DNA of 32,000 nucleotides, taken from assembly GCF_028752835.1 (NCBI RefSeq), contig NZ_CP087952.1, positions 445,041-477,040 on the forward strand. Direction: 5' to 3'. Source of the stretch: Desulfosarcina sp. BuS5 (lineage in GTDB: Bacteria; Desulfobacterota; Desulfobacteria; Desulfobacterales; BuS5). Under the pieces are notes generated by a model. It was not told the DNA's origin, did no database searches, and worked only from the letters and a program-made list of their open reading frames with translations. A program made the translations under genes and the position numbers. Shown in pieces: positions 3,348 through 28,413 of the stretch (position 1 is the first letter of the stretch; every line of letters starts with the position of its first letter).

Positions 3348-4685
3348 ATGCTTCTTTCAGTATTATTAAAAAATATCACAGACAGGCGATATTTGACCGG
3401 TATGGACTGGCTTGTCCATGTGTTTGACTATATGACCAAACAGGCCACCGGCGTTGGAAACATATCACAGCTTGTCTTTGAGCTTGCAGGTGAATTGGAT
3501 GAAAATCAACTTAAAAGCGCACTTAAGAAGTTGATCCAAAAGTATCCACTCCTGTCAGGGCATCCGGCGCGGGCTTTTAACCTTGCCCCATACTGGAAAA
3601 TACCATCAGAAAAAAATACTGTCAGGATACCGTTTAATACTGATCAAATCGGAACAGACGCAAAAAACGGCTGGATAATCCGCTTGCTGGAACGATCTGT
3701 TAATGCCCCATTTAACAGCGAAAAGGAACATCTTGCGTTTAATCTCATAAAAGCGGGAAAAAAAAGTTTTTTAGCTATGACATTCGACCACCGCTTGCTG
3801 GACGGGAGGGGAGCCGAGGCATTTTTAGGTTTGCTGCAGGATGAATGGGACAGCAATTTTGAACTGTCAACGGATGTTTCTGTTACGGAACCTCCTCATC
3901 TTTCCGGGTGGGTTAGAAAATTCAAGGCAGGGCAAAAGGTCAACCGCTTATTATTACGGATAGCTGAAAATGCGCCTCCGCTTGTTTTACCTGTTGGGCC
4001 GCCTTTAAAATATCCTGATTTTAAATTTAAGTTGCTTTTTTTCAGCAAGGACAAGAGCGATAGAATTATTGAAAAATCGAATAATGAGGCCGGATACCTG
4101 ATGCTGATGCCTTTTCTGCTGGCATCCTCTGTTAATGCACTGCATTCTGCTTTTAAAGCAAGGGGAATAGTGGGCAGTGATTATCTTGTGCCGGTCGGAA
4201 TAGATATGCGTTCACCTGAAAAGATTAAAAAACAAGTATTTTTTAACCATGTTTCTTTTTTTATGCTCAAAATTAAGGCGGACAAATCAGATGACCTGAA
4301 TTTTATTTTAAACTCCATCAAGTCTCAGATATATGACCAGGTCCGGAACGGCGTGCTGAACAATTTTATAGAAGCCGGAATGCTTTTACGAATTGCGCCC
4401 CCTGCTCTATTGAGCCGCCTGATACTCCTGCCTTTCAAGGGAGTCATTTCGTCTTTCAGTTTTTCTTATGTTGGAGAATCCGCATTCAAGTCAAATGAAT
4501 TTATGGGCCGGGAGGTATTAAACCTTACCCATATGCCCAGGGTTCCTGTCCCGCCCGGTATTGGAATATTTTTTCAAAAATTTAAAGGAAAACTCAACGC
4601 TGTTTTATCCTATAAGCAGGATCTATTGTCCGATAATGAGGCAAACTTGATTACAGGCGTCTTGAAATCCGTGCTTGGAGCCTAA
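3348..4685 (+). CDS. Condensation-domain-like / CAT-superfamily acyltransferase (HHxxxDG type)
   Basis: FDHRLLDGRGAEAF matches the (H)HxxxDG active-site motif of NRPS C domains, PapA5 and WS/DGAT acyltransferases. At 445 aa the size is typical of a stand-alone C-like enzyme. Confidence 0.55.
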   Translation: MLLSVLLKNITDRRYLTGMDWLVHVFDYMTKQATGVGNISQLVFELAGELDENQLKSALKKLIQKYPLLSGHPARAFNLAPYWKIPSEKNTVRIPFNTDQIGTDAKNGWIIRLLERSVNAPFNSEKEHLAFNLIKAGKKSFLAMTFDHRLLDGRGAEAFLGLLQDEWDSNFELSTDVSVTEPPHLSGWVRKFKAGQKVNRLLLRIAENAPPLVLPVGPPLKYPDFKFKLLFFSKDKSDRIIEKSNNEAGYLMLMPFLLASSVNALHSAFKARGIVGSDYLVPVGIDMRSPEKIKKQVFFNHVSFFMLKIKADKSDDLNFILNSIKSQIYDQVRNGVLNNFIEAGMLLRIAPPALLSRLILLPFKGVISSFSFSYVGESAFKSNEFMGREVLNLTHMPRVPVPPGIGIFFQKFKGKLNAVLSYKQDLLSDNEANLITGVLKSVLGA

Positions 4686-5882
4686 ATGTCCCGCAAACAA
4701 ATAGAATGTGAAGTGCTGGTTGTGGGGGGTGGTGTTGCCGGTTTATGCGCCGCCGTCACCTCTGCCAGGTCAGGCGCTGAAACTATTCTGATTGAAAAAA
4801 ATGATTTCCCGGGCGGCACGGCTGTTACCGGTTTGCATAGTTTTATTTGCGGGCTCTATTTAAACGGCGTAACAATGCCGGGGAAGACCCTGAACAGGGG
4901 TATTGCGCGTGAAATCACGGCGGGATTAAAAAGACTTGCTCCAGGGACAAATATTTATAAAATGGGAAGGGTGTATGTCCTCCCGTTTTCAACAGGAGAT
5001 CTTGTTTCTGTTTTCAGGGCATTGAGTGAAAACACTGACCGCCTGGTCCTTTTGTATAATACCAGGGCTGTTTCCGTGCAATCAGGGCATGACAGAATTG
5101 TTTCCGTAACCGCATGTGATTTAATGGACCAAATTGATATCAAGGCCGGATTTGTCATAGATTGTTCGGGTGATGGTGTAATAATTAAATTAGCAGGCTT
5201 GAAATACAGATCGGCGACGCCGGATAAACGTCAATTGGCAGGATTTACATTTAAGCTCAAGGGCCTTTACCCTCCGGATGATATGGCAAGTATTAAGGTG
5301 CCGTACTATCTGGCCCGGGCGGTAAGAGCACAAAAGATTCCTTTTCACCTGAAGTTTACCACTTTTATTGCAGAGGATGATGGGGATGAAGGTTTTTGCC
5401 GGCTCGCCATTCCTCCCGGTTCAGAAGCGAATAGAGTGTTACAGGCACAAGCGGATGCCCGGCTGGTACATTCTGTTCTTAGAAAAAAGATCCCTGCTTT
5501 TCGGGATTCTTACATCATGGAAAAATCTTCAGCCGTAGTTGACCGGGAGGGGATCCGTTTAAGCGGCGAATATTTATTGACCGGAGAGGATGTGTTAAAG
5601 GGTAAAAAGTTTTCTGACGGCATAGTCAAAAGTTCATGGCCGATAGAGTTTTGGTACCAAAACAGGGGCCCACGCTATCAATATCTGTTACCTGGTGATT
5701 ACTATACAATTCCTTTCGGATGTCTCAAGGATAAAATGATAAAAAATTTTTTATGCGCCGGACGATGTATATCAGTAACCGGTGAAGCATTAGGCTCCAC
5801 CCGGGTTATGGGCACCTGTATGTCGATGGGTGAGCAGGCCGGCCAAGTCGCCGCATCAGGATATAGATTTCCACATAAATAA
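4686..5882 (+). CDS. FAD-dependent oxidoreductase (FAD_oxidored / GidA-like fold)
   Basis: N-terminal dinucleotide-binding motif VLVVGGGVAGLCAAVTSARSGAETILIEKNDFPGGT. The start directly abuts the previous stop (TAA ATG at 4683-4688). Confidence 0.75.
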   Translation: MSRKQIECEVLVVGGGVAGLCAAVTSARSGAETILIEKNDFPGGTAVTGLHSFICGLYLNGVTMPGKTLNRGIAREITAGLKRLAPGTNIYKMGRVYVLPFSTGDLVSVFRALSENTDRLVLLYNTRAVSVQSGHDRIVSVTACDLMDQIDIKAGFVIDCSGDGVIIKLAGLKYRSATPDKRQLAGFTFKLKGLYPPDDMASIKVPYYLARAVRAQKIPFHLKFTTFIAEDDGDEGFCRLAIPPGSEANRVLQAQADARLVHSVLRKKIPAFRDSYIMEKSSAVVDREGIRLSGEYLLTGEDVLKGKKFSDGIVKSSWPIEFWYQNRGPRYQYLLPGDYYTIPFGCLKDKMIKNFLCAGRCISVTGEALGSTRVMGTCMSMGEQAGQVAASGYRFPHK

Positions 5883-7689: not shown

Positions 7690-10600
7690 ATGGATAATCG
7701 ATTCTTTGAACAACCCATCCTCAACTCCCCATATGAATATCCGGCACTGCACTGGGAGCTTGATAATGAAGGCCAGCCGACACAGCGAATTATTAAAAAC
7801 CGTCGCAGCGCAAAGTTCATCACTCCGATTCCAAAGCCGAAAAAACGCAAAAACAAAGATGCGCCCCAACAACAGGAATTTGTTTTCGACGAGGGCAAGG
7901 GGCTTTCAACTAAAGAGCAACAATACGACCCAACGCCGATCATCAATGCCCTTCGTCGTGATGTGGATAAATGGCGAACTTTAAAGAATCCAAATGACTG
8001 GAAAGTTAGTCCCGAAACGGCCCGCCTGATTCAGCACTGGCGTCACCATAAGTTCAATGATATCCGCCCATTCTTTTGTCAGGTGGAAGCAATCGAGACG
8101 GCCATCTGGCTTACCGAGGTCGCCCCAAAATCCGGTAAAAGCGAAAAAGGCTTTCTTAAACATCTTGTAAACGCAAACAACGACGCAAACCCGGAACTTA
8201 TGCGCCTGGCTCTGAAAATGGCTACAGGCACAGGTAAAACTACCGTTATGGCAATGCTGATTGCCTGGCAGACCATCAATGCCGTGCGTCGCCCCACCAG
8301 TAAAAAATTTACACGAGGTTTCCTGATTGTCACTCCGGGCATAACTATCCGCGATCGGCTTCGCGTACTTTTTCCCAATGATCCGGACAGCTACTATGCA
8401 AGCCGTGAATTGGTGCCAAACGATATGCTTTCTGATCTGAAACGGGCAAAAATTGTAATTACCAATTATCATGCGTTTAAACAGCGTGAACGAATGGAAC
8501 TTTCCAGGGGAGGTCGTTCCCTGCTTCAGGGCCGGGGCGAAGCTTTAAATACATTAGAAACAGAAGGCCAGATGATTCAGCGGGTGATGCCCGACCTCAT
8601 GGGAATAAAAAATATCATGGTGTTCAATGATGAGGGGCACCATTGTTATCGAGAGAAACCAGGCGAAAATGATGTAAGTACTTTGAAAGGTGATGATAAA
8701 AAAGAAGCCCAAAAAAATAATGAAGCCGCACGTCTCTGGATTTCCGGTCTTGAGACTGTTAATCGAAAACTCGGCATTTCGCGTGTTATTGATTTATCGG
8801 CAACACCATTTTTTTTAAGCGGCTCCGGTTATGTCGAAGGCACCCTGTTTCCATGGACCATGAGTGATTTTTCATTGATGGATGCCATTGAATGCGGAAT
8901 CGTCAAACTGCCGAGAGTACCGGTAGCCGACAACATACCCGGAGAAGAGATGCCAAAATTCCGAAATCTCTGGCAGCATATTGGTAAAAAAATGCCAAAA
9001 AAAGGTAGAGACAAGTCAAAAGTTCTTGATCCTCTCAGCCTGCCGGTTGAACTGCAGACCGCGCTGGAAGCCCTTTACGGGCATTACAAAAAAACATATG
9101 ATCTATGGGAAGAAAACGGCATTCATGTGCCGCCCTGCTTTATCATTGTCTGCAACAACACCTCCACATCCAAACTGGTTTATGATTATATTTCCGGTTT
9201 TTACAGGGAGAATGAAGATGGTACAAGTCAGTTAGTAAATGGCCGTTTGGAGCTGTTTAGAAATTTTGATGAACATGGCAATCAGTTGGGGCGTCCAAAC
9301 ACCTTGCTTATTGACAGCCGGCAACTGGAATCCGGCGATGCGCTGGATAAAAATTTTCGGAACATGGCAGCCGACGAAATTGATCGTTTCCGCCGGGAAA
9401 TTATCGAGCGCACCGGTGACCGTTGTCAGGCTGAAAATATTACGGATCATGATCTGCTCAGGGAGGTCATGAACACTGTCGGCAAGCAGGGACGACTGGG
9501 TGAATCGATCCGATGCGTGGTGTCAGTCTCCATGCTCACCGAGGGATGGGATGCCAATACTGTCACCCATATTCTTGGCGTGCGTGCGTTTGGAACACAG
9601 CTTTTGTGTGAACAGGTTATTGGCCGCGCTCTGCGCCGTCAATCTTATGACCTTAACGAAGAAGGTCTCTTCAATGTTGAGTATGCCGATATACTGGGAA
9701 TCCCGTTTGATTTCACAGCCAAACCGGTGATAGCGCCGCCTCAGCCGCCAGGAGAAACCATCCATGTCAAAGCGGTTCGACCTGAACGCGACGCTCTTGA
9801 AATAAAATTTCCCCGTGTCCAGGGTTATCGCGTTGAATTGCCAAAAGAACGTCTGACGGCTGAGTTTAATGAAGACTCTGTTCTGGAGTTGACACCGGGT
9901 ATCGTTGGTCCGTCTATTACCAAAAATCAGGGCATAATCGGTGAGGGTGTGGATCTCAGCCTGAAGCATCTAAAAGACATGCGGCGATTAACCCTGCTGT
10001 TTCACGTTACCAAACGTTTACTATACACAAAATGGCGAGATCCTGACAAAGATCCCGAGCTGCATTTGTTTGGTCAGCTCAAGAGAATCACAAGGCAGTG
10101 GCTTGACAATTGTCTGCTCTGTAAAGGCGGCACGTATCCGGCCCAGTTGATGTACCAGGAACTGGCTGACATGGCCTGTGAACGGATTACTGCCGCCATT
10201 ACCCGTTCCCTGATCGGGGAACGACCTGTCAAAGCAGTGCTTGATCCGTATAATCCCACCGGCTCCACCATGCACGCAAACTTCAATACCTCCAAAAAGA
10301 GCCGCTGGCAAACAGATGCCCGGCGATGTCATATCAACTGGGTGATTATTGACAGCGACTGGGAGGCCGAATTCTGCCGAGTAGCGGAATCTCATCCAAA
10401 AGTAAAGGCATATGTCAAGAACCATAACCTTGGGCTGGAAGTCCCATACCGCTATGGATCTGAAATGCGGACGTACCTGCCTGATTTCATTGTCCTGATT
10501 GATGACGGCCGGGACAAGCCTATGAACCTGATTGTTGAAATCAAGGGATATCGCCGCGAGGATGCCAAAGAAAAAAAATCTACTATGGAGACCTACTGGG

Positions 10601-10749
10601 TTCCTGGCGTAAATAACCACGGACATTATGGGCGCTGGGCATTTGCTGAATTTACCGAAGTTTACCGGATCGAATCTGACTTTAAAGCAAAAGTTGAAGC
10701 GGAATTTAATAAAATGATTGAACAGGTATTAATAACGGGAAAGGTTTAA
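7690..10749 (+). CDS. res: Type III-like restriction enzyme Res subunit (SF2 helicase plus C-terminal PD-(D/E)xK nuclease)
   Basis: Walker A MATGTGKT and motif II FNDEGHHCY. The later helicase motif is SVSMLTEGWDANTVTHILG and the C-terminal nuclease motif is PDFIVLI...LIVEIKGY. The N-terminus MDNRFFEQPILNSPYEYP...HWELD is typical, from memory, of the long Type III-like Res family. Confidence 0.85.
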   Translation: MDNRFFEQPILNSPYEYPALHWELDNEGQPTQRIIKNRRSAKFITPIPKPKKRKNKDAPQQQEFVFDEGKGLSTKEQQYDPTPIINALRRDVDKWRTLKNPNDWKVSPETARLIQHWRHHKFNDIRPFFCQVEAIETAIWLTEVAPKSGKSEKGFLKHLVNANNDANPELMRLALKMATGTGKTTVMAMLIAWQTINAVRRPTSKKFTRGFLIVTPGITIRDRLRVLFPNDPDSYYASRELVPNDMLSDLKRAKIVITNYHAFKQRERMELSRGGRSLLQGRGEALNTLETEGQMIQRVMPDLMGIKNIMVFNDEGHHCYREKPGENDVSTLKGDDKKEAQKNNEAARLWISGLETVNRKLGISRVIDLSATPFFLSGSGYVEGTLFPWTMSDFSLMDAIECGIVKLPRVPVADNIPGEEMPKFRNLWQHIGKKMPKKGRDKSKVLDPLSLPVELQTALEALYGHYKKTYDLWEENGIHVPPCFIIVCNNTSTSKLVYDYISGFYRENEDGTSQLVNGRLELFRNFDEHGNQLGRPNTLLIDSRQLESGDALDKNFRNMAADEIDRFRREIIERTGDRCQAENITDHDLLREVMNTVGKQGRLGESIRCVVSVSMLTEGWDANTVTHILGVRAFGTQLLCEQVIGRALRRQSYDLNEEGLFNVEYADILGIPFDFTAKPVIAPPQPPGETIHVKAVRPERDALEIKFPRVQGYRVELPKERLTAEFNEDSVLELTPGIVGPSITKNQGIIGEGVDLSLKHLKDMRRLTLLFHVTKRLLYTKWRDPDKDPELHLFGQLKRITRQWLDNCLLCKGGTYPAQLMYQELADMACERITAAITRSLIGERPVKAVLDPYNPTGSTMHANFNTSKKSRWQTDARRCHINWVIIDSDWEAEFCRVAESHPKVKAYVKNHNLGLEVPYRYGSEMRTYLPDFIVLIDDGRDKPMNLIVEIKGYRREDAKEKKSTMETYWVPGVNNHGHYGRWAFAEFTEVYRIESDFKAKVEAEFNKMIEQVLITGKV

Positions 10750-10754
10750 TTAGG

Positions 10755-12227
10755 ATGCCGGCCATTCGTCTGAAAATATTCATTAGCAGCGTTCAAAAGG
10801 AATTCCAGGATATTCGCCGGGATCTCAAGGTCTTTCTTCTTGGCGACGCTGTTTTGCGTCGTTTTATATCCGATGTTTTTCTCTTTGAAGAACTGCCGGC
10901 CAAGGATCGCTCTGCGGATCAGGTCTACCTTGAAGCGGTTGAACAATGTGATATTTATGTGGGTATCTTCGGCTACGAATACGGATACGAAGACAATGAC
11001 GGCGTTTCCCCCACTGAACACGAGTACTACCATGCTACTGAACACCAAAAAACCCGTTTGATTTACGTTTGGGGCAGGGACGAAAAAAAACGTGCACCCA
11101 AAATGAAGCAACTGATTCGAAAGGCCGGTGATGGGCTGATTCGCCGCCGCGTCGAAGACGTCAGTGCCCTGACCGCAGAAATTTATGCCAGTCTTATTGA
11201 TTATCTTGACGGAATGGGGGCGCTGCGCATTCCGCCGTTCGACACCTCGGCTTGTGACGGAGCGACCCTCAAGCAGATTTCCCGCAAACGCATCGACTGG
11301 TTTATAGAGACCGCCCGCCGGGAACGCGGATTTCCCCTTAAACCCAGGACAAGCACAAAAGCGCTTCTCACCCATCTAAATCTGTTGGAAAATGGGAAAC
11401 CAACCAACGCCGCGACACTGCTTTTCGGAGTCAATCCCCAGCGATTCCACCGCCCTGCCGAAACCAAGTGCATTCATTGCCACGGCACTATGTATCGACG
11501 GCCGTTTGCATCCCAGCAGATATACACAGGGGATCTTTTTGAACAAGTAGATCAAGCCCGCGATTTCGTTCTTGCAAAGATCAACAGGGCCGTCGGCACC
11601 CGCGCGGACAGCATCACCGCACCGGCCACTTATGAACTTCCACCCGATGCCGTGGGTGAGGCCATTGTTAATGCCATTGCCCATCGTGATTACCATAGTA
11701 ATGCCTCCGTGGAGATACGTCTCTTTGTCGACCGGCTGGAAGTTTGGAACCCCGGTGTTTTGCCCGGTACTTTAACGCTGGAGAGTCTGCGGGTTGACCA
11801 CCCTTCTTTGCCCGGCAATCCGCTGATTGCGGAATCTCTTTATTTAGCGCGATATATTGAAAAGGCCGGTTCCGGCATCCAAATGATGATTGAGCAGTGC
11901 AGTGCAGCAGGTCTTCCTGAACCGGATTTTGAGCAGCGCCAGGGATCTTTCGTTAACACACTGTGGCGGGACTGGCTGACGGAAGAGGTGCTGTCTGTAT
12001 ATAATTTGAACGACAGGCAGAGAAAGGCCGTGGTCTACTTAAAGACACATGGAAAAATCTCCAACGCAGAATATCAACAGGTGGCAAATTCCATTAAGAA
12101 GACTGCTACGAGAGATCTAAACGGTTTGAAGAAAAAAGGGATCATTGAGCAAGTAGGCAGTCGTGGACCAGGCGTCCACTATGTCATTTCGAAGAAAAGG
12201 GACAAAATGGGGACAAATGGGACATGA
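10755..12227 (+). CDS. DUF4062 / Schlafen-AlbA_2-like / HATPase_c_4 / wHTH protein (the RecG-like 'ATP-binding protein / transcriptional regulator' class)
   Basis: The N-terminus KIFISSVQKEFQDIRRDL...CDIYVGIFGYEYG fits DUF4062. TNAATLLFGVNPQRF fits the distal half of AlbA_2. EAIVNAIAHRDY...VEIRLF...LEVWNPG...IEKAGSGI fits HATPase_c_4. The C-terminal RQRKAVVYLKTHGKISNAEYQ looks like a wHTH. The gene starts 5 nt after the res stop. Confidence 0.7.
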   Translation: MPAIRLKIFISSVQKEFQDIRRDLKVFLLGDAVLRRFISDVFLFEELPAKDRSADQVYLEAVEQCDIYVGIFGYEYGYEDNDGVSPTEHEYYHATEHQKTRLIYVWGRDEKKRAPKMKQLIRKAGDGLIRRRVEDVSALTAEIYASLIDYLDGMGALRIPPFDTSACDGATLKQISRKRIDWFIETARRERGFPLKPRTSTKALLTHLNLLENGKPTNAATLLFGVNPQRFHRPAETKCIHCHGTMYRRPFASQQIYTGDLFEQVDQARDFVLAKINRAVGTRADSITAPATYELPPDAVGEAIVNAIAHRDYHSNASVEIRLFVDRLEVWNPGVLPGTLTLESLRVDHPSLPGNPLIAESLYLARYIEKAGSGIQMMIEQCSAAGLPEPDFEQRQGSFVNTLWRDWLTEEVLSVYNLNDRQRKAVVYLKTHGKISNAEYQQVANSIKKTATRDLNGLKKKGIIEQVGSRGPGVHYVISKKRDKMGTNGT

Positions 12228-12273
12228 ATTTCATCATACTGGAAAAGGGACAAAATGGGGACAATGGGGACAT
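12194..12273. repeat. 32-nt direct repeat (12194-12225 and 12242-12273), 48 nt apart, straddling the stop codon of the DUF4062 gene
   Basis: The copies are gaaaagggacaaaatggggacaaatgggacat and gaaaagggacaaaatggggacaatggggacat. A second short motif, atgtcattYcRaa, occurs at 12181 and 12277. Confidence 0.8.
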
Positions 12274-12437
12274 CTCATGTCATTCAAAGAAAGGCCTCAC
12301 AAACGCATCAAACGCCTCATTGGGTCATGGATGAATGCTCTATGCTAAAAATTGCCTTCATTATGCAAAAGGCCAGTACTTTAAACTGGACATAAGCCAG
12401 ACGAACAGAATACGAACCATCAACACTGGATTGAATT

Positions 12438-15203
12438 ATGCCGCGCAAAAAGAAAAAAATCAGCAAAACCGTTGAAACCATTACACACGCTGAAGCAATC
12501 CGCAAGAACATCCCTACGGCTGAATATCAGTCTGTAATGCGAAAAGACGAAGAAACGCCTATTCAAATCGCATACGAACGCCGCAACCGCGATCTGGACC
12601 CCCAGCTTGTCTGGCGCGGCAAGGATGAACAGGACTGGTCTGACCTGGTAGTGCATGCCCCGCCTTTGTACATCCAGGAAAAGGTTCATCCAAAGGTCTT
12701 GATTGACGATTTGATCAAACAGACCGAGGCGCAGGAAAAGTCGGGTATAGCTCAACAGATGGATCTTTTTTCCGATTTTAACGGTCTGCCCAGCGAAGGC
12801 GCAAAAACCGAATTCTACCAGCACGATGCAAACTGGTCCAATCGAATGATACTTGGCGACAGTTTGCAGGTCATGGCGTCTCTGGCCGAACGCGAGGGGC
12901 TTCGTGGAAAAGTGCAATGCATTTATCTTGATCCGCCTTATGGGATTAAATTCAATTCCAATTTCCAGTGGTCAACGACGAGTAGGGATGTGAAGGATGG
13001 CAAGGTTGACCATATTACCCGGGAACCGGAACAGGTGAAGGCATTTCGGGATACATGGCGGGATGGGATTCATTCGTATTTGACTTATTTGCGGGATCGG
13101 TTGACTGTGGCTCGGGATTTGTTGACGGAGTCGGGGTCGATCTTTGTTCAAATTGGAGATGAGAATGTGCATCGGGTACGGGCTTTGATGGATGAGGTGT
13201 TTGGGGATGAGAATTTGGCATCTACTATCGCTTTTAAAAAGACTTCAGGCACAGGGTCTCGTTATCTTGAGAATATCTACGACTATGTGTTGTGGTACGC
13301 AAAAAAAATTGATCATCTTAAATATAGGCAGCTTTTTACGAAAAAAAGCGACCAATTGTTTGACACTCAATATTCAGGAAAAGACGAAATCCGAGAGCAT
13401 ACAGTGACCGGGGATCCTCGCTTCATGCCTGGTGATATGAGTTCGCAAGGTGCAAGTGAAGCTGGGACATATCCTTTCTTATATCTTGGGAAAACATACA
13501 AACTTCCACCAAACACTCATTGGAAGGCTTCGCAAGAAGGTTTGCCAAGATTGGCAAAAGCAAGTCGACTTGTAGGAATCGGCAAGCGTCTTCGATATCG
13601 ACGCTTCGCTGATGATTTTCCGGTAGTAACGTTCAATAATTCTTGGGATGATACTGTGATTTCAGGATATGCCGAATCAAAATTATATGTCGTTCAAACA
13701 TCTGGGAAGGTAATTCAGCGGTGCCTAATGATGGCGACAGACCCAGGTGACCTCGTTCTCGACCCTACATGCGGCTCGGGTACCACAGCTTACGTTGCCG
13801 AGCAATGGGGCCGTCGCTGGATCACCATTGACACTTCACGTGTTGCACTTGCGCTTGCCCGCGCCCGCATCATGGGCGCTCGTTATCCCTATTATCTTTT
13901 GTCTGACAGCCGTGATGGGCAACTCAAGGAAGCTGAAGTCTCCCGAACCGCTCCGTCAGAAGCACCGACCCAAGGCAATATCCGTCAAGGATTTGTTTAC
14001 GAACGTGTTCCACACATCATGCTTAAATCAATAGCTAACAATACAGAAATTGATGTAGTCTGGGAAAAATTCCTGAAAATTTTGGAGCCATTGAGAGAGA
14101 AAGTCAATAAGTCGCTCGGCAAAAATTGGGAAGAATGGGAAATCCCCCGTGAAGCAGACGACAAATGGTCAAACAAAGTCAAAAAATTCCATAACGAATG
14201 GTGGAGACACCGCATTGCCCGGCAAAAGGAAATTGATGCATCCATCGCGGCAAAAGCGGATTTTGAATATCTCTACGACAAACCCTATGAAGACAAAAAA
14301 AAGGTTCGAGTGGCAGGCCCTTTCACCGTTGAAAGCCTGTCTCCCCACCGTGTGCTGACCGTGGATGAAAACGATGAATTGATTGACACTGTTGCAGAAT
14401 CCCAAGAGGGCTATGGAGAGAAGCAGGATTTTGCGGGAATGATTCTGGAAAACCTTAAAACCGCAGGCGTGCAGCAGGCCCACAAGGAAGACAAAATCAA
14501 TTTATCATCCATTACTCCCTGGCCTGGGTACTATGTTTGCGCGGAAGGCAAATATATTGAAGGTTATACTGAAACCAAGGCTGAAAAACGCGCCGCCATT
14601 TTCATCGGCCCTGAGTTTGGCACAGTAACACGGCCGGACCTGGTTTCTGCCGCCCGTGAAGCCGGTGATGGGGATTTTGATGTGCTGATTGCCTGCGCAT
14701 TTAATTACGACGCGCACTCATCGGAATTTGACAAACTTGGCCGCATACCCGTGCTTAAGGCCAGGATGAATGCCGACCTGCACATGGCTGATGATTTAAA
14801 AAATACCGGCAAAGGAAACCTGTTTGTAATTTTCGGTGAACCTGACATTGACATTCTGAATGCTGAAGACGATCAGATTCAGGTAAAAATTAACGGCGTA
14901 GATGTATTTCATCCCAACACCGGCGAAGTCCGCAGTGACGGGGCCGAGGGCATTGCCTGCTGGTTCATTGATACCGACTACAACGAGGAAAGCTTCTTTG
15001 TCCGCCATGCCTATTTCCTCGGCGCAAACGATCCGTACAAGGCATTAAAAACCACCCTCAAAGCCGAAATCAACCAGGAAGCCTGGGAGACTCTTAACAG
15101 CGACACATCCCGCCCGTTTAACAAACCAAAATCCGGCCGTATTGCTGTGAAGGTGATCAATCATCTGGGTGATGAGGTGATGAAAGTGTTCAAGGTGAAC
15201 TGA
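12438..15203 (+). CDS. mod: Beta-class N6/N4 DNA methyltransferase, Type III-like Mod subunit (921 aa)
   Basis: Motif IV IYLDPPYG (about 12921-12947) precedes motif I VLDPTCGSGTT (about 13754-13789), which is the beta permutation with the TRD between them. The long C-terminal extension is typical of partners of the long Res family. Confidence 0.85.
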   Translation: MPRKKKKISKTVETITHAEAIRKNIPTAEYQSVMRKDEETPIQIAYERRNRDLDPQLVWRGKDEQDWSDLVVHAPPLYIQEKVHPKVLIDDLIKQTEAQEKSGIAQQMDLFSDFNGLPSEGAKTEFYQHDANWSNRMILGDSLQVMASLAEREGLRGKVQCIYLDPPYGIKFNSNFQWSTTSRDVKDGKVDHITREPEQVKAFRDTWRDGIHSYLTYLRDRLTVARDLLTESGSIFVQIGDENVHRVRALMDEVFGDENLASTIAFKKTSGTGSRYLENIYDYVLWYAKKIDHLKYRQLFTKKSDQLFDTQYSGKDEIREHTVTGDPRFMPGDMSSQGASEAGTYPFLYLGKTYKLPPNTHWKASQEGLPRLAKASRLVGIGKRLRYRRFADDFPVVTFNNSWDDTVISGYAESKLYVVQTSGKVIQRCLMMATDPGDLVLDPTCGSGTTAYVAEQWGRRWITIDTSRVALALARARIMGARYPYYLLSDSRDGQLKEAEVSRTAPSEAPTQGNIRQGFVYERVPHIMLKSIANNTEIDVVWEKFLKILEPLREKVNKSLGKNWEEWEIPREADDKWSNKVKKFHNEWWRHRIARQKEIDASIAAKADFEYLYDKPYEDKKKVRVAGPFTVESLSPHRVLTVDENDELIDTVAESQEGYGEKQDFAGMILENLKTAGVQQAHKEDKINLSSITPWPGYYVCAEGKYIEGYTETKAEKRAAIFIGPEFGTVTRPDLVSAAREAGDGDFDVLIACAFNYDAHSSEFDKLGRIPVLKARMNADLHMADDLKNTGKGNLFVIFGEPDIDILNAEDDQIQVKINGVDVFHPNTGEVRSDGAEGIACWFIDTDYNEESFFVRHAYFLGANDPYKALKTTLKAEINQEAWETLNSDTSRPFNKPKSGRIAVKVINHLGDEVMKVFKVN

Positions 15204-15661
15204 TGAACTTCCGAATAGCCGATACATTCACCGACAATCTTGCAAAATTAAGCAATGATGAACAAAAGGCCGTCAAAACTACTGCTTTTGATTTGCAATT
15301 GAATCAGGCCAATCCAGGCATGCAGTTTCACAATATTGAAAGGGCCAAGGATCTCAATTTCTGGTCTGTGCGGGTCAACCGTGATATTCGTTTAATCGTC
15401 CATAAAACCCGGGACAATTTAATGCTTTGTTACGCAGGACATCATGATGATGCCTATCAATGGGCGGAAAGACGAAAACTGGAAACACATCCTAAAACCG
15501 GCGCTGCCCAATTTGTTGAAATCAGAGAAACAGTCAAAGAAATCACCATTCCCAGATATGTTGATAAAAAATATCCCAAAGAACCTAAACCTCTTTTATT
15601 TGAAAATATATCTGATGATGATCTCCTGACCTACTTTGAATATGATGGCTTTAAACAATAA
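15203..15661 (+). CDS. RelE/ParE-fold domain protein; probably the 5' stump of a RelE-fold/SF1 (UvrD-like) helicase fusion gene
   Basis: The start overlaps the mod stop (TGATG). FWSVRVNRDIRLIVHKTRDNLMLCYAGHHDDAYQWAERRKLETHPKTGAAQ is a RelE/ParE-like core plus linker. From memory this is the N-terminus of 600+ aa helicase proteins. Here the ORF ends 9 codons after ...DDDLLTY, inside the radical SAM gene start region. Confidence 0.55.
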   Translation: MNFRIADTFTDNLAKLSNDEQKAVKTTAFDLQLNQANPGMQFHNIERAKDLNFWSVRVNRDIRLIVHKTRDNLMLCYAGHHDDAYQWAERRKLETHPKTGAAQFVEIRETVKEITIPRYVDKKYPKEPKPLLFENISDDDLLTYFEYDGFKQ

Positions 15662-23178: not shown

Positions 23179-24729
23179 CTCGATGTTCAAGTTTTTGATG
23201 ACGAACTTGCCAAAAGCACTTAGCAAGGACAATATTTACGTGATAGAGAGGGTGTTGGCTCCAATCTACCTATGGTTCTTCCGCTCATATGTTTTCCCGA
23301 TGGCATAAGTCGGAAAACTTTTTTGATAACTTGCCCCATTTCTTTAAGCTTTTCACCGGGATCTTGTTGTTGCAGCAAAAATTTGACACATTCCATCAAA
23401 ACATCCATTTGAGCTCTTTTTTGTAGACTTCCCACGGTAAACACGGGAGTTTTGTTCTCTATGCAGGCCTTTTGCTCAGGGTGAAGGAGGAGGCAATGGT
23501 CTAGCAACAGACTCAAGATCAGGCCTCGGCTTGATCCTTCTTCGTCATATTGTTTGGCCTCTTGTCCCCATCCTTCATAAAGCTTCCAGTCTTCAAAAAA
23601 AACCTCTACAAGCCATCTCAAAGAATATGCTTGAATAATGTCAACTGTGCGCCAACTCACATCAGTGGCAGCTAAGTAACGGTATTCATCTTCCCCTTCA
23701 TATTTAAGAGCTATCACAAAAAGCACATTGCCATCGTGTGCATCAACCTTAAGGCGGGCACTGCTCACTGTTGCATTGACTTTTTCACCGCCTCGCACAC
23801 GAATGGTGCAATTTACACCTTTGTTAATCATGTTGAAATAATCCGTAATTGTCTTTTTTTTACCTTTGTACCGTATATTTTGATTTGACTTTAATTGGCT
23901 GATAACTTGCACTCCTCCCAAAATATTAGAGGCTCCATTCATAAATTCTTTTGAACCGTATAAAGCGTCAGCCAATACACATTTAACAGTAATTTTAGGA
24001 TAATATTCTTTAAAATTTTCAAGTAAGAGCAGGGCTAATTGAATTTTTTTCGGGTACTCAGGGTTAAATGCTGGTTTGACAGGACGCTTATTCTTCGGGA
24101 GTCCCTTTTTTTTCAATCTCTCTTCTTCTTTTTTCCAGGCACTAACAACTGGATCAGGCATGTAAAACTTAAAACCAATAGGTACGGTTATAGAGTCTGT
24201 GACCAAAAGAAGCAAAACAACTGTTTGCCCATTAACATAACCTCCGCTTGCTTTGTGTTTTTGCTTATGAGCCTTGTATATTCGCTTTGTATTCTTAGAA
24301 CGGGCACGATCAGACTCATCAAAAACAATTACACCATTTGTGATACCATATTTTTTCAAAATACGCCTGACGCTTCCAACAAGTAAATTGTCCCATGAAA
24401 TCTTACCCTTACGAAACATCCAAGATAGAGCTGCTAATTTATAATTGCCCAGACTCGCCCGTTCAAATTTTGCCCAACATACAGCATTTACCATTAATAT
24501 ACCGGTAAGACAAAAGCTTAGCCATGCTTTCTGGGTAAATGTTAATCCCGCACTAGGTTGGTATTGCTCCAGGCTATTGTTGAGATCTTCAATGTACTGT
24601 TTGATAAATGGTGCAGATTCAGTTAATAGCATTATGAATGGGCTCTTTCAAAGTTGTTAATATTTTTAATGGTCGTGATTATACTATCAAACTTTAAATT
24701 TAGCTAATCATAAAAACTTGATCATCGAG
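23179..24729 (-). mobile_element. Intact IS4-family insertion sequence (1551 bp) with terminal inverted repeats and a 5-bp target duplication
   Basis: IR at 23179-23196 is ctcgatgttcaagttttt. The reverse complement of 24712-24729 is ctcgatgatcaagttttt (17/18 match). TATCA occurs at 23174-23178 and 24730-24734. Confidence 0.85.
23220..24632 (-). CDS. IS4-family DDE transposase (470 aa, apparently intact)
   Basis: Candidate DDE residues lie in VIVFDESD and CVLADALYGS, and in the Y(2)R(3)E(6)K signature AYSLRWLVEVFFEDWK. Confidence 0.85.
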   Translation of the reverse strand: MLLTESAPFIKQYIEDLNNSLEQYQPSAGLTFTQKAWLSFCLTGILMVNAVCWAKFERASLGNYKLAALSWMFRKGKISWDNLLVGSVRRILKKYGITNGVIVFDESDRARSKNTKRIYKAHKQKHKASGGYVNGQTVVLLLLVTDSITVPIGFKFYMPDPVVSAWKKEEERLKKKGLPKNKRPVKPAFNPEYPKKIQLALLLLENFKEYYPKITVKCVLADALYGSKEFMNGASNILGGVQVISQLKSNQNIRYKGKKKTITDYFNMINKGVNCTIRVRGGEKVNATVSSARLKVDAHDGNVLFVIALKYEGEDEYRYLAATDVSWRTVDIIQAYSLRWLVEVFFEDWKLYEGWGQEAKQYDEEGSSRGLILSLLLDHCLLLHPEQKACIENKTPVFTVGSLQKRAQMDVLMECVKFLLQQQDPGEKLKEMGQVIKKVFRLMPSGKHMSGRTIGRLEPTPSLSRKYCPC

Positions 24730-25015
24730 TATCAGATGGAATATTTTGTATTCCAAACAAAGATTGAGCATTGTTGACACCCTTATTTTTCTGCATAAAT
24801 TTTTGAAAGGCAAGAAAAGAAGGAGATTGCGTAAAGAATACCGAAAAGCCGCTAAGGGCTATATCTTCAATGCTGTATTGTATGTTGCTACCGGTGCGCT
24901 TATCAGGAAAATTGTGGCTCTCAATACGAAACTGCCGCGCCATCATCTCAAAAGAGATATACGGCAGTTGCGTTGATGCGATTATTTTCGCTTCCTGATT
25001 TTGGGGCAAACGCAT
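24730..25015 (-). pseudogene. Outer IS transposase, N-terminal fragment cut by the nested IS
   Basis: MRLPQNQ...LFGIQNIPSD then runs into the inner IS terminus (TR*). Deleting 23179-24729 plus one TATCA copy restores ...IPSDNHIRDMLDWVPPEK... in frame. Confidence 0.8.
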
Positions 25016-25238
25016 ATGAGTCCAAGATAACCGATAATAGTTAATTGTTCTTACCCATTATTTGTTACCACAAGCATATGTGTTTGTCTATAGATTTTAT
25101 TTTTAATTAAAACAATGCGTTATTGGTTGTGATGGTTAGGGGGGATAAATATCCCAAATATCTTGCTCCAACTAAAGCCATAATTAGAATTGCTGCTGTG
25201 AAAGCTGCTTTTCGTTGGTTTCAAAATGGGTCATTGTT

Positions 25239-25988
25239 TTATCCCAATTTCCTTACGAGTTTTCCCATGCTGTCATAAACATATCCTGTGATGAGTGCCA
25301 CAAAATCTGTTTTGTCTTGATTCAAATTGCATTTTTCCAGGGCATTGTAATAAGCCAGTCGGCTTTCTGTGTCTCCGGAGATACTGGCAATGGTGTAGCC
25401 GTTTTGCAAAAGAACCAGATTCATCAAAAGCCTGGCTGTTCTGCCGTTTCCATCTATAAAAGGATGGATAGTTGCAATTCGCTCATGGATTTCAGCAGCA
25501 AAGATAACCGGATGTAAATTTTTAGCTTCTTCTTGAATCCAGAAATTCAGATCCTCCATCAGTTTCGGAACCTGCCAGGGCTGAGGAGGTTCATGCCGGC
25601 TTCCTGAAATTGACACGGGAACACCGCGATATTTTCCTGCATTTTCTCTATCAATACCTCGCAAAACAAGAGAGTGAATATCTTTGATTATCTTTTCATT
25701 TAAGATGTCGCCTGTCGTTACAAGCTCTTTTATGAAAGCAACAGCCTCGTAGTGGTTGACCGCTTCAAGATGTTCACGCATTGACTTTCCGCCGATGGTC
25801 AGCCCCTTATTAATGACAAGATCCGTTTCCCGTAAAGTCAGGGTATTACCTTCAATACGGTTACTATTATAAGTATATTCGATATCTATGGCTTGAAGTA
25901 TCGTCTCGTTAAGCAAAGGGCGGGAGGCATCAAGTTTTTGTTTTAGTGCGTCTATTCGGGTGAGCAGGTGTTTTATTCTGCTACTCAT
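25239..25988 (-). CDS. fic: Fic family protein (AMPylase-type) with an N-terminal inhibitory helix motif
   Basis: Fic motif HPFIDGNGRTARLL. The auto-inhibitory (S/T)xxxE(G/N) motif is SNRIEG, upstream of the core. A strong RBS (AGGAGAGG) precedes the ATG. Confidence 0.9.
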   Translation of the reverse strand: MSSRIKHLLTRIDALKQKLDASRPLLNETILQAIDIEYTYNSNRIEGNTLTLRETDLVINKGLTIGGKSMREHLEAVNHYEAVAFIKELVTTGDILNEKIIKDIHSLVLRGIDRENAGKYRGVPVSISGSRHEPPQPWQVPKLMEDLNFWIQEEAKNLHPVIFAAEIHERIATIHPFIDGNGRTARLLMNLVLLQNGYTIASISGDTESRLAYYNALEKCNLNQDKTDFVALITGYVYDSMGKLVRKLG

Positions 25989-26101
25989 ATATCCTCTCCT
26001 GTTTTTAGAAAGTTTATATCATTTTAATTATAGTAGTATTTTTCTAACTTCACCCTGTCCTATAAGTTCAGTAAACTTTGTATAATTTGATTCTTCCCAT
26101 C

Positions 26102-26245
26102 TTATTCGACCTGCAATAATTGCAGGCGATATACCAAGATCCTGGAGAACTGGCGCGCCATCCAGAACTCTTCTCCATCGAGCCCGGTTTCCTTTATACT
26201 GTCAAAAGTCTGATAGTATTTTTTTTCTATATTTTTTCCGTTCAT
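26102..26245 (-). pseudogene. 47-codon ORF resembling the 5' end of a DinD/Bro-N-like gene, truncated
   Basis: The ATG overlaps the hsdM stop (ATGA). MNGKNIEKKYYQTFDSIKETGLDGEEFWMARQFSRIL fits the F-x-x-I-[KR]...G-x-E-[FY]-W-x-A-R pattern of DinD-like proteins (about 270 aa), then ends after 47 codons. This ORF is not in the supplied track because it is under 60 aa. Confidence 0.4.
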
Positions 26246-27807
26246 CGCTGGATCTCCTTGAGTTTTTCAGCTATTTTTACCCGAACTTTCTTCAGCTCTT
26301 TTTCCAGTTCGTCTATCTCTAACTGAACGGCATCGATATCGATCTCTTCTTCTTCAAACGTATCAACATAACGGGGGATATTAAGGTTAAAGTCGTTTTC
26401 CTTGATTTCCTCGAATACGGCTACATGGGCATACTTCTCCACTTCTTCACGTGACTTGCAGGTCCCCATGATTTTAGTTAGATGTTCTTCCGAGAGGGTG
26501 TTATGGTTTTTACTGGACACATATTCCCGGCCGGCATCTACAAATAGAACATCCTTGCATGTTTCATTTGACCCGCCTTTTTCACGGCTTCGATCAAAGA
26601 CCAGAATAGCAACCGGTATATTGGTAGTCGGGAACAGATTCCCCGGAAGTCCGATAACTGCATCGAGAAGATTTTCCTCAATCATTTTTTGACGAATCCG
26701 GCCTTCAGCAGCTCCCCGGAAAAGAACCCCATGAGGAACGACAACGGCAACACGCCCCTGTTTTTCCAGAGCAGTCTCCACCATATGGCTGATAAATGCC
26801 CAGTCGCCTTTACTTTTTGGAGGAATTCCGCGCCAGAACCGGTTGTACTGATCGCTTTCAGCATTTTCCGCTCCCCATTTATCAAGCGAGAATGGTGGAT
26901 TGGCGACTATGCAGTTGAATTTCATCAAACGGTCATTTTCAATTAGAAGAGGACTGTTGAGAGTGTCGCACCATTCGACACGGGCGCTGTCAAAGCTGTG
27001 CAGAAACATGTTCATACGGCATAATGCCCATGTACTGCCGTTTGATTCCTGTCCGAAAAGGGCAAAATTCCGGTCACCAACCTCTCTGGCCGCCTGAATC
27101 AAAAGACCTCCTGATCCGCAGGCAGGGTCACAGATGCGGTCACCCGGCTTTGGCCCGGCAAGTTTAGCTACAAGTTCGGTTACTTTGAGCGGGGTAAAAA
27201 ACTCTCCGGCCTTTTTCCCGGAGTCGGAAGCAAAACGTTCAATCAGATAAATATAGGTGTTGCCAATAACATCCCCTGAAACCCGGCTTGGTCTCATGTC
27301 TAACTGCGGCTTGTGAAAATCTTCAAGAAGTTGTTTCAGTCGTCTGTTTCTGTCTTTGGTTTTTCCAAGATTTGCTTCGCTGTTGAAATCAATATTACGG
27401 AAAACGCCTTCAAGCTTGCTTTTGTTAGATTCTTCAATGTGGACGAGAACAATATTGATAAGTTCCCCGATATTGGCTGCGGCTCTACGTTCGTAAAAGC
27501 TGTAATAGGTGGCGGGGAACTCGTCCAGCACAGTTTTCTGTCCTGTCTTCTCATTTTTTTCAGTTAATTTGATTGCAGGGAGAATAAAACGTTCACGTTC
27601 CAGTTTTCGGCGAATTCTAACATCATCATCACCATACTGTTTTTGATAGGCTTCATAGTGATCCTGCCATACATCCGAAATGTATTTTAAGAACAACATC
27701 ACAAGGATGTAGTCCTTGTATTGAGCAGGATCTACCACTCCCCGGAAGGTATCGCATGCAGCCCATGCAGCGTTGTTGATGTCTTTTTGATCAATTTGGC
27801 TGCTCAT
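26242..27807 (-). CDS. hsdM: Type I restriction-modification system methyltransferase subunit
   Basis: HsdM N-terminal domain (AAWAACDTFRG...YKDYILVMLFLKYISD), motif I DPACGSGGLL, motif IV IVANPPFS. AAGGGGA RBS. Confidence 0.9.
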   Translation of the reverse strand: MSSQIDQKDINNAAWAACDTFRGVVDPAQYKDYILVMLFLKYISDVWQDHYEAYQKQYGDDDVRIRRKLERERFILPAIKLTEKNEKTGQKTVLDEFPATYYSFYERRAAANIGELINIVLVHIEESNKSKLEGVFRNIDFNSEANLGKTKDRNRRLKQLLEDFHKPQLDMRPSRVSGDVIGNTYIYLIERFASDSGKKAGEFFTPLKVTELVAKLAGPKPGDRICDPACGSGGLLIQAAREVGDRNFALFGQESNGSTWALCRMNMFLHSFDSARVEWCDTLNSPLLIENDRLMKFNCIVANPPFSLDKWGAENAESDQYNRFWRGIPPKSKGDWAFISHMVETALEKQGRVAVVVPHGVLFRGAAEGRIRQKMIEENLLDAVIGLPGNLFPTTNIPVAILVFDRSREKGGSNETCKDVLFVDAGREYVSSKNHNTLSEEHLTKIMGTCKSREEVEKYAHVAVFEEIKENDFNLNIPRYVDTFEEEEIDIDAVQLEIDELEKELKKVRVKIAEKLKEIQR

Positions 27808-27810
27808 GTT

Positions 27811-28389: not shown

Positions 28390-28413
28390 AAACACATCTT
28401 AATATTATGCTGT

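Follow-up and report, generated by a model that had tools for sequence, protein, structure and literature searches.

Analysis of a 32,000-nucleotide (nt) stretch of the Desulfosarcina sp. BuS5 genome (contig NZ_CP087952.1, positions 445,041 to 477,040, referred to here as the window) reveals a Type III-like restriction-modification (R-M) operon of the BPTD_3080 family that has a decayed third gene and carries, between its restriction (res) and methyltransferase (mod) genes, an embedded gene for a 490-residue protein that we call Mid. Three properties of Mid are new in this analysis: operator-like triple direct repeats ("boxes") at the 3′ end of its gene, covariation of these boxes with the recognition helix of its C-terminal winged helix over about 80 loci, and an independently swapped cassette that holds them both. 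The reading that we favor, with a probability of roughly 0.65, is that Mid is an embedded, autonomous abortive-infection module that would act by depleting NAD+ and that carries a swapped winged-helix/box cassette. Synteny, the optional presence of Mid, its promiscuity among operon types, its domains, the conserved catalytic glutamate, the box geometry, the helix-box covariation and the cassette boundaries were all computed directly. The features of the operon are as follows.

7690–10749, + strand: res, a 1019-residue BPTD_3080-family Type III-like restriction subunit with a superfamily 2 (SF2) ResIII motor and a C-terminal RE_endonuc domain.
10755–12227, + strand: Mid, the embedded gene (490 residues), with DUF4062/NIR at residues 1–155, a middle region, HATPase_c_4 at about 300–402, a winged helix at about 417–478 and a short tail encoded by box 1.
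11013–11027, + strand: T87-E-H-E90-Y91 of Mid, a putative NADase catalytic motif (E-Y).
12032–12411, + strand: hypervariable cassette, taking in the winged helix (starting near residue 426), the two own boxes and the greater part of the spacer.
12090–12119, + strand: recognition helix S446-I-K-K-T-A-T-R-D-L455, with I447-K448-K449 as putative specificity residues.
12194–12225, + strand: box 1, GGGACA-N5-GGGACA-N3-GGGACA, over the last 11 Mid codons and ending at the stop codon.
12242–12273, + strand: box 2, a second copy of the GGGACA triple repeat, 48 nt start-to-start from box 1.
12290–12320, + strand: box 3, an other-class triple repeat, GCCTCA/GCATCA/GCCTCA.
12384–12413, + strand: possible degenerate fourth box of CTGGACA type, matched by eye, on weak evidence, to intact TGGACA boxes in loci L005, L022, L023 and L024.
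12438–15203, + strand: mod, encoding a 921-residue N6/N4 DNA methyltransferase of Type III class that is much extended at its C-terminus.
15203–15661, + strand: truncated third core gene, the putatively RelE/HigB-like N-terminal domain (152 residues) of a UvrD-type superfamily 1 (SF1) helicase of about 696 residues.

The gene coordinates were verified exactly, and they agree with a preliminary description of the window, made from the sequence alone, which had reported tight linkage on one strand with res first, a 5-nt gap between res and the middle gene, and an overlap of the mod stop codon with the next ATG. The res stop codon occupies 10747–10749 and the Mid ATG begins at 10755, the mod TGA (15201–15203) shares its A with the ATG at 15203 (TGATG), and res stands ahead of mod here and throughout the BPTD_3080 family. 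The sole intergenic gap of the operon is the 210 nt between Mid and mod (12228–12437). The same description had placed a duplicated 32-mer in this gap; the 32-mer is present twice, as box 1 and box 2 (94% identical), but its first copy falls within the final 11 codons of Mid and not in the gap.

The boxes have a distinctive organization. First, their architecture is constant, with three 6-nt cores spaced by 11 and 9 nt and set in an unvarying frame (core-CA-TAAA, core-CA-AA, core-CA-T). Second, they are concentrated at the 3′ end of Mid; adjacent GGGACA units occur in the window only at boxes 1 and 2 (four matches against 0.01 expected), and triple boxes in related loci are found at 3.85 per kb within −60 to +450 of the Mid stop codon against 0.049 per kb elsewhere, an enrichment of about 80-fold. 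Third, they are paired, a typical locus having one box over the Mid stop codon and another box of that class that starts 44–48 nt after the start of the first, which is the mode of the spacing across classes. Fourth, the core itself varies from locus to locus: it is GGGACA in the window, and GGCTCA, GGGCCA, GCGCCA, GTGCCA, (A/C/T)GGACA, CCG(T/C)CA, GACTCA and others elsewhere. Finally, no own-class boxes were found near the res promoter.

The spacers of the window operon (12290–12320 and about 12384–12413) and of six other loci (L005, L022, L023, L024, L055 and L071) contain further triple boxes of other classes downstream of their own pair, in a partly conserved order (TGGACA, GGCTCA, CCG(T/C)CA, GGGGCA, GAGACA) that continues as far as the next gene's ribosome-binding site; these lie within the swapped cassette described below.

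Three other accounts of the repeats were considered and put aside. A structured RNA or riboswitch in the 210-nt gap was rejected, as there is no Rfam match and the fold is weaker than that of shuffled sequences (z +1.55), and RNA repeats like those of Type III toxin-antitoxin systems are unlikely given this lack of structure and the three-unit internal periodicity. Target sites for Mod were set aside because the boxes accompany Mid into Type I, Hma and R-M-free contexts. A promoter and terminator scan of the gap was uninformative, with no convincing promoter in the spacer, and no inverted repeats were found in the interval 12100–12600.

The identity of the box core is predicted by the winged helix encoded immediately upstream. 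The two residues that precede the conserved T-A-x-R-D-L motif of the recognition helix give the core correctly for 70 of 82 non-redundant loci; over 2000 permutations the mean was 36 and the highest value 43. The correspondence holds within a single winged-helix scaffold cluster, in which KR accompanies GGGCCA and KP accompanies GGCTCA, and it holds across at least six scaffold clusters, in which P, A or G accompanies CTCA. It extends further to plasmid relatives that have no DUF4062 domain, with SKP alongside TTGGCTCA (GGCTCA) in Hymenobacter and SKR alongside TTGGGCA in Rhodothermus. These relatives, which come from cultured bacteria and are encoded at 3953–4708 of a Rhodothermus marinus plasmid locus (L125) and at 3857–4948 of a Hymenobacter canadensis plasmid locus (L127), are HATPase_c_4/winged-helix proteins with boxes across their stop codons, and since they have both the boxes and the rule, the feature belongs to a wider DIP2311-like family. 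From the box geometry together with this covariation, we infer that the winged helix binds the triple repeats.

The winged helix and the boxes form a cassette of 300–400 nt that is swapped independently of the gene body. A BLASTN comparison of the window with locus L041 shows 94.8% identity up to position 12031, no homology thereafter, and 92% identity again from 12412. The same pattern is seen in three other locus pairs from other operon types. In these four pairs, which represent four operon types, homology stops at about Mid residues 404–426, just after an invariant TLWRDWLT, and resumes 290–395 nt further on, shortly before the next gene. N-terminal bodies of 385 residues that are 94–99% identical bear different helix/box classes, and one helix/box class is also found on bodies only 53–56% identical; the mean body identity is 0.70 for same-class pairs and 0.71 for different-class pairs. 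The boxes lie inside the exchanged segment, and they are therefore not the crossover points in the four mapped pairs, in which a role for them as recombination sites was rejected. One locus (L020, at about 1640–1720) has a silent second winged-helix 3′ end (…GNRGLGVHYVLRRKGPKWGQWGH, followed by a stop codon) with a GGGACA-class box, downstream of a Mid of the GGCTCA class, and this looks like a leftover or stored alternative cassette.

The domain composition of Mid points to an effector. The N-terminal domain matches DUF4062 (PF13271) with 72.7 bits against a gathering threshold of 24.7 (E = 2.9e-20, residues 7–94), a model that all 35 aligned homologues also match, and residues 317–402 match HATPase_c_4 (Pfam, 3e-22), a GHKL-like domain whose motifs EAIVNAIAHRDY and KAGSG are conserved among the homologues. 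The C-terminal winged helix is seen in the structure model and in matches of many family members to Pfam DIP2311-like_C, HTH_DeoR and MarR. The DUF4062, HATPase_c_4 and winged helix-turn-helix assignments of the preliminary description thus hold, by Pfam search and structure model, whereas its assignment of an AlbA_2 (PF04326)/Schlafen domain does not and was rejected, none of the 35 family members giving a match even at E ≤ 1. The AlphaFold model of Mid (pLDDT 66, the predicted score in the local distance difference test) is good for the N-terminal domain and for the winged helix but poor over the region that separates them, and the model of the 152-residue product at the end of the operon is likewise mediocre (pLDDT 54), so that fold matches serve here as support only. 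The top Foldseek match of Mid is DIP2311 (PDB 3LMM, E = 7e-11), which its C-terminal two thirds resemble by fold, the model being poor in that region, and the N-terminal domain resembles nucleoside 2-deoxyribosyltransferases, DNPH1 and TIR-STING. A profile of the Mid family searched against solved structures finds 3LMM (1.4e-6), the DUF4062 domain of KpSwz (2.6e-4, over residues 4–160) and the winged helix of a Fic protein.

DUF4062, renamed NIR, is reported as a TIR-like NADase defence effector in the main texts of three preprints (10.64898/2026.05.01.722283; 10.64898/2026.09.04.749371; 10.64898/2026.06.25.731849). As presented there, it is the effector of Swarozyc, Evangelion, Vulcan, Vesta and some Avs systems, in which NAD+ depletion and abortive infection depend on a catalytic glutamate (E97 of KpSwz, E108 of PsAvs2, E98 of Vulcan and E103 of VstA) that lies in an "E-Y" motif. 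In a profile alignment of Mid to the PDB sequence of KpSwz, the position of E97, which is alanine in the E97A construct described in 10.64898/2026.05.01.722283, aligns with E90 of Mid, and both E88 and E90 of Mid are invariant in 35 homologues. On the strength of the domain, the invariant catalytic motif and these published relatives, Mid probably kills infected cells through NAD+ destruction, that is, by abortive infection. The middle region has in addition a C-I-H-C-H-G motif (residues 239–244, 11469–11486), with no variation at C239 or H241 and conservation of at least 90% at C242 and H243; this C239-x-H-C-H motif could be a metal or catalytic site.

Mid has more than 4800 homologues, the best 120 listed being 72–94% identical. 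No full-length homologue was found among 50,697 phage records. PADLOC v2 contains no model that captures Mid, giving only partial matches to pAgo-associated proteins, and the main texts of the DUF4062 preprints mention no restriction, methyltransferase, HATPase or Schlafen context; we found no characterised system of this composition, and the preliminary description had known of none.

The distribution of Mid is that of cargo carried by R-M operons, with the pattern known as genetic embedding. Synteny was scored by TBLASTN in 36 loci from genomes or assemblies, representing more than 12 phyla, and in 80 metagenome loci (loci are designated here by L numbers). A BPTD_3080 Res lies directly upstream of Mid in 51 of 100 non-redundant loci that have at least 300 nt of upstream sequence, a fraction biased toward its own lineage, since similarity to this Mid was how the loci were gathered. 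The order Res-Mid-Mod is found in 34 loci on the sequence available, and where enough downstream sequence is given a helicase gene usually follows mod, either directly (L025, L029) or past 1.3–4 kb of other genes. This recurrent synteny means that Mid is not a one-off insertion.

Mid is also present in other settings, among them at least four further families of ATP-dependent modification-restriction operons. It is found in Type I operons, as hsdM-Mid-hsdS-hsdR (L010, L056, L078) and hsdS-Mid-hsdR (L063); in another Type III family, where the genes run mod-Mid-res (L060; PADLOC MTase_III 1017 bits, REase_III 1658 bits); in Hma operons, as HmaA-Mid-...-HmaB (L106–L109), alongside other embedded genes; with pairs of HKD-SNF2 (PLD-SNF2) and IIG-like methylase genes (L019, L064, L068, L081); and between a Fic gene and a STAND ATPase gene (L018). 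Across operon types the gap between Mid and the upstream gene is −3 to about 30 nt, and the Mid N-terminus tracks the host operon, being MPATRL with Res and VKLKIF with HsdM, PLD-SNF2 or a methyltransferase.

Several relatives depart from these arrangements. Two seemingly solitary copies (L007, L050) keep the last 15 or so Res codons (…FNKMI…) upstream and are decayed cassettes, not independent insertions. A solitary relative lies beside parB on a Legionella pneumophila plasmid (L040, 6992–8563), with 54% identity over residues 6–405, a (TGQV)n repeat, a different C-terminal domain and no boxes. Many of the relatives in the library align over residues 5–406 only, and one protein of 2918 residues (P0241) contains four tandem copies of the Mid 162–482 region.

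Of the products of the R-M genes that flank Mid, Res matches NCBIfam NF046055 with 1401.7 bits (cutoff 800) over protein residues 6–1001 and profile positions 1–969 of 970, and is thus a member of the BPTD_3080 family; it also matches Pfam ResIII (3.1e-9) and RE_endonuc (2.2e-6), and the classical Type III profiles cover only about 80 of its residues (PADLOC REase_III, 2.5e-8; NF012027, 25 bits against a cutoff of 564). Mod is a Type III Mod by its matches to PADLOC MTase_III (PDLC03632, 1441.9 bits) and Pfam N6_N4_Mtase (1.6e-34). With Mid between these two, the earlier view of the locus as Type III-like R-M with an embedded gene is sustained. A literature search on the BPTD_3080 family found nothing. 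Membership of Hma was rejected, as the window Res matches only Type III Res models and there is no HmaB among the best 25 of 51 PADLOC matches of Mod; true Hma operons that host Mid give, for contrast, 562 bits for the SNF2 helicase HmaA and 355 bits for the DUF1156 methylase HmaB.

The fourth open reading frame (ORF) of the operon is what is left of a helicase gene. Residues 1–144 of its product are 65% identical (E = 1e-65) to the N-terminus of a 696-residue UvrD-type helicase encoded downstream of mod in related loci, and the full-length gene is present 3′ of mod in L001–L003, L005, L006, L012, L025–L027, L029, L036–L038, L066, L071, L087 and others. The next gene in the window, which starts at about 15636–15645, encodes B12-binding and Radical_SAM domains, and the helicase has therefore been deleted here, with its first 145 or so residues kept. 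At the junction about 550 helicase codons have been removed and the island edge is joined to a housekeeping-type gene, the helicase ORF terminating within the start of the radical SAM gene (15636–15661). The preliminary description had proposed a RelE-fold helicase: the helicase remnant is clear, and the RelE-like nature of its N-terminus is weakly but consistently supported. The 152-residue product alone has no significant family match, falling below cutoff with PF05015 (E = 0.032) and ParE_like (E = 0.023); PF05015 is matched at E ≤ 1 by 20 of 22 homologues (best 3.9e-6), the top Foldseek matches are YoeB, HigB, YafQ and RelE (probability 0.94–0.99, E about 0.04–0.1), and some sources label homologues "RelE" or "DNA helicase, partial".

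The res, mod and helicase genes also occur together where Mid is absent. None of 56 plasmid records identified by TBLASTN with this Res contains a full-length Mid homologue, a share measured on plasmids. On Pseudomonas avellanae p1NCPPB4222 the position between res and mod is empty (2 nt), mod overlaps the gene for a 697-residue helicase and there is no Mid, and on other plasmids unrelated genes occupy the junctions as follows.

Gemmobacter p6: res|mod junction, a 139-residue hypothetical protein; mod|helicase junction, a 192-residue hypothetical protein.
PCC 7002 pAQ5: res|mod junction, a UPF0175/DUF3368 pair (toxin-antitoxin).
Rhizobium plasmid: res|mod junction, a 307-residue hypothetical protein; mod|helicase junction, two hypothetical proteins.
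Methylomagnum plasmid: res|mod junction, a 173-residue hypothetical protein; mod|helicase junction, a CBASS phospholipase and nucleotidyltransferase.

Elsewhere the mod|helicase junction holds HEC-01 (L002), SIR2-HerA (L005) or a STAND-like ATPase (L006). Because the triad can lack Mid or contain unrelated inserts, it is res, mod and the helicase gene that make up the conserved core, with two slots for cargo. The mapped contents of the slots include HEC-01 at L002 13987–15519, SIR2-HerA at L005 13866–16947, the CBASS CapV and CD-NTase at L123 14675–17183, and the UPF0175/DUF3368 toxin-antitoxin pair at L121 11112–11856; several small hypothetical genes in these slots are further defence candidates by embedding.

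These observations can be brought together in a model. The ancestral core would consist of three translationally coupled genes, for Res, Mod and a RelE-like/UvrD helicase, whose res|mod and mod|helicase junctions would act as slots that gather passenger defence genes; in the window Mid would be a passenger in the res|mod slot, and the helicase has been reduced to its N-terminal domain. The DUF4062/NIR domain is the predicted effector, a TIR-like NADase that would deplete NAD+ and cause abortive infection as in Swarozyc, Evangelion, Vulcan and NIR-Avs, and the conserved middle region with the GHKL-like HATPase_c_4 domain is the likely sensor or switch. The C-terminal winged helix would bind the two triple direct repeats that straddle its own stop codon, each set offering three sites and the sets lying about 47 nt apart, and the winged-helix/box cassette is exchanged by recombination much like the immunity region of a repressor and its operator. 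The favored effects of such binding would be control or insulation of the downstream gene, or the tethering of an inactive oligomer at its own locus.

A number of considerations weigh against this model. The analysis was computational at every step, and the lineage bias in the retrieval of loci noted above applies to the synteny on which it draws. The covariation of helix and box could be due in part to physical linkage, because the two are exchanged together as a block. The winged helix of Mid could also be a protein sensor, because the winged-helix auxiliary domain of KpSwz, as reported in the preprint main texts, binds the phage portal rather than DNA. The sensor region of Mid is undefined, because the structure model is moderate and its middle region poor, and with its helicase truncated, this one locus may have an impaired R-M part. 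The other-class boxes in the spacer are not accounted for. Lastly, the boxes are at the 3′ end of the gene and none of the own class is near the res promoter, which makes autoregulation of the classical kind unlikely and leaves the binding without an obvious purpose.

Of the alternatives, the one that survives best, as a possible though doubtful refinement of the passenger model, is that Mid is a guard, silent while the R-M complex is intact and firing its NADase once the enzyme has been disabled by an anti-restriction factor of a phage. PrrC in EcoprrI and RloC are precedents for a guard embedded in an R-M locus, and it is suggestive that Mid repeatedly lies between the motor/nuclease and methylase/specificity genes in R-M-like, ATP-dependent operons of five kinds, with start codons that overlap or nearly do and with N-termini that differ by host operon. 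However, the partner proteins belong to unrelated families, which makes a common physical interface unlikely; there is a solitary relative on Legionella plasmids, and several Mid loci have no R-M neighbor; Mid resembles PrrC and RloC in being embedded in an R-M operon but shares no domain with either, having nothing of their ABC-ATPase and HEPN content; and the presence of unrelated cargo in the same slots fits simple embedding (10.1101/2024.01.29.577857).

The tethering variant of the passenger model can be put more sharply: the NADase would sit as an inactive oligomer on its six cognate sites in the DNA of its own locus, bound through a programmable and quickly exchanged winged-helix/operator pair, and would fire when the tether is lost or remodelled. 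The trigger in such a case might be phage-induced DNA degradation, a DNA-mimic anti-restriction protein or the neighboring R-M motor. We regard this as unlikely, while noting that it would link failure of the R-M system to NAD+ depletion and would constitute a new sensing principle for a TIR-like NADase.

It is also quite unlikely that Mid is mainly a regulator, an analogue of the controller (C) proteins of R-M systems that sets expression of the downstream methylase or specificity gene, with DUF4062 and the GHKL-like domain sensing a small molecule and no killing involved. The position of the box pairs directly upstream of the next gene is what would be expected of such a protein, the winged helix is of the "transcriptional regulator DIP2311-like" and MarR/DeoR-like families, the helix-box rule is kept in relatives that lack DUF4062, and the swapping of specificity cassettes is reminiscent of C-protein incompatibility groups. 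Against this, the catalytic glutamate and its flanking motif are invariant, and the boxes, in contrast to C-boxes with their inverted repeats at a promoter, repeat directly and sit at the 3′ end of the gene, in a spacer with no convincing promoter. The boxes also follow Mid where there is no downstream R-M gene (L014, L021, L030), and every DUF4062 protein tested so far, on the accounts in the preprint main texts, is an NADase effector (10.64898/2026.05.01.722283; 10.64898/2026.09.04.749371; 10.64898/2026.06.25.731849).

A more skeptical view is that the boxes bind no protein at all, and are recombination scars or slippage products of a variable 3′ end. Their exchange together with the winged helix would then make the covariation pure linkage, and the other-class arrays do look like relics. 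Yet the internal spacing of 11 + 9 nt and the pair spacing of about 47 nt are fixed across unrelated cores, the CA-TAAA/CA-AA/CA-T frame is constant around a variable core, the same residue-to-core rule applies on different scaffolds and in distant relatives, and the boxes lie inside the swapped cassette and not at its breakpoints; we consider this explanation improbable. Least probable of all is the proposal of the preliminary description that the products of res, Mid, mod and the helicase gene together form a single obligate system as its subunits, a new helicase-methylase-ATPase class, which draws on tight same-strand linkage and a four-gene order that recurs in many loci but is contradicted by the existence of res-mod-helicase without Mid and with unrelated inserts, the absence of full-length Mid from all 56 plasmid records with this Res, the presence of Mid in other operon types and of a solitary relative, and the lack of an Hma model for Res or among the best 25 of 51 matches of Mod.

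If Mid is the embedded NADase module that we favor, it represents a large and very conserved branch of the DUF4062/NIR NADases, which were recognised as immune effectors only in 2026, with another sensor architecture, a preference for sites within restriction operons and loci spread over more than 12 phyla. The BPTD_3080 operon with its two fixed slots brings a Type III-like family within the scope of "guilt by embedding" and gives further candidates. The covariation of winged helix and box is a compact candidate protein-DNA code, coupled to an immunity-region-like exchange of cassettes inside a defence gene; if true, the residue-to-base rule at the start of the helix (K to GACA, P/A to CTCA, R to (G/C)CCA) would be a natural, re-codable DNA recognition code. 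Confirmation of binding would make control of a TIR-like NADase by its DNA-bound state directly testable.

The window has a second, decayed R-M locus of Type I at 23220–28395 on the − strand, with a half-size hsdS (27811–28395), hsdM (26242–27807), an embedded Fic gene (25239–25988) and a DDE transposase gene (23220–24632); no hsdR was seen. An AAA_14/DUF4143 ATPase gene lies at 28948–30264 on the + strand.

The system described here has likenesses to several known ones. Its R-M part resembles classical Type III enzymes (EcoP15I and EcoP1I) in having a beta-class N6/N4 Mod and a Res that joins an SF2 motor to an endonuclease domain at its C-terminus, but the operon is reversed, with res preceding mod in place of the Type III mod-then-res order, both subunits are larger, the similarity of Res to the Type III profiles is marginal, and the BPTD_3080 family adds a third, translationally coupled gene for a RelE-like/UvrD helicase. 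The nesting of a passenger defence gene between core genes is as seen for PrrC and RloC in Type I loci, although these are ABC-ATPase/HEPN anticodon nucleases and Mid, of different domain content, is a predicted NADase. It is equally the pattern of genetic embedding ("guilt by embedding") examined by Payne et al. in Hma, BREX, DISARM and Type I systems, a set outside which the BPTD_3080 Type III-like family falls (10.1101/2024.01.29.577857).

With KpSwz of Swarozyc, Eva01 of Evangelion, Vulcan and NIR-Avs, Mid shares an N-terminal DUF4062, a glutamate in an E-Y motif and a variable C-terminal auxiliary part; those systems, as described in the preprint main texts, likewise spread by horizontal transfer, and KpSwz also has a winged-helix auxiliary domain. 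The similarity to KpSwz is confined to residues 4–160, however, and the remainder of Mid, which matches 3LMM and HATPase_c_4 and has a DIP2311-like winged helix, is not the KpSwz-type auxiliary domain that acts as portal sensor. Unlike these proteins as described in the preprint main texts, Mid is embedded in R-M operons and accompanied by matching cis DNA repeats. For residues from about 160 to 490 the best structural and sequence match is the DIP2311 (PDB 3LMM) family of HATPase_c_4 and winged-helix proteins, annotated as ATP-binding proteins or putative transcriptional regulators, which is often found in R-M loci, as with an Aliarcobacter member whose gene has a KAP NTPase gene on one side and hsdR on the other within a Type I locus, and for which no member with a tested function was found; the typical N-terminus of that family is AlbA_2, whereas that of Mid is DUF4062, with AlbA_2 undetectable.

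The closest parallels to the cassette are the C proteins with their C-boxes and the repressor/operator immunity regions of phages. In both of these, specificity is exchanged together with the site as a unit, and C proteins fall into incompatibility groups. Mid is alike in that specificity and cis site co-vary, move as a unit and define classes. It differs from the C proteins, which are small helix-turn-helix proteins with inverted repeats at a promoter, in being a multidomain 490-residue enzyme fusion with triple direct repeats at the 3′ end of its own gene.

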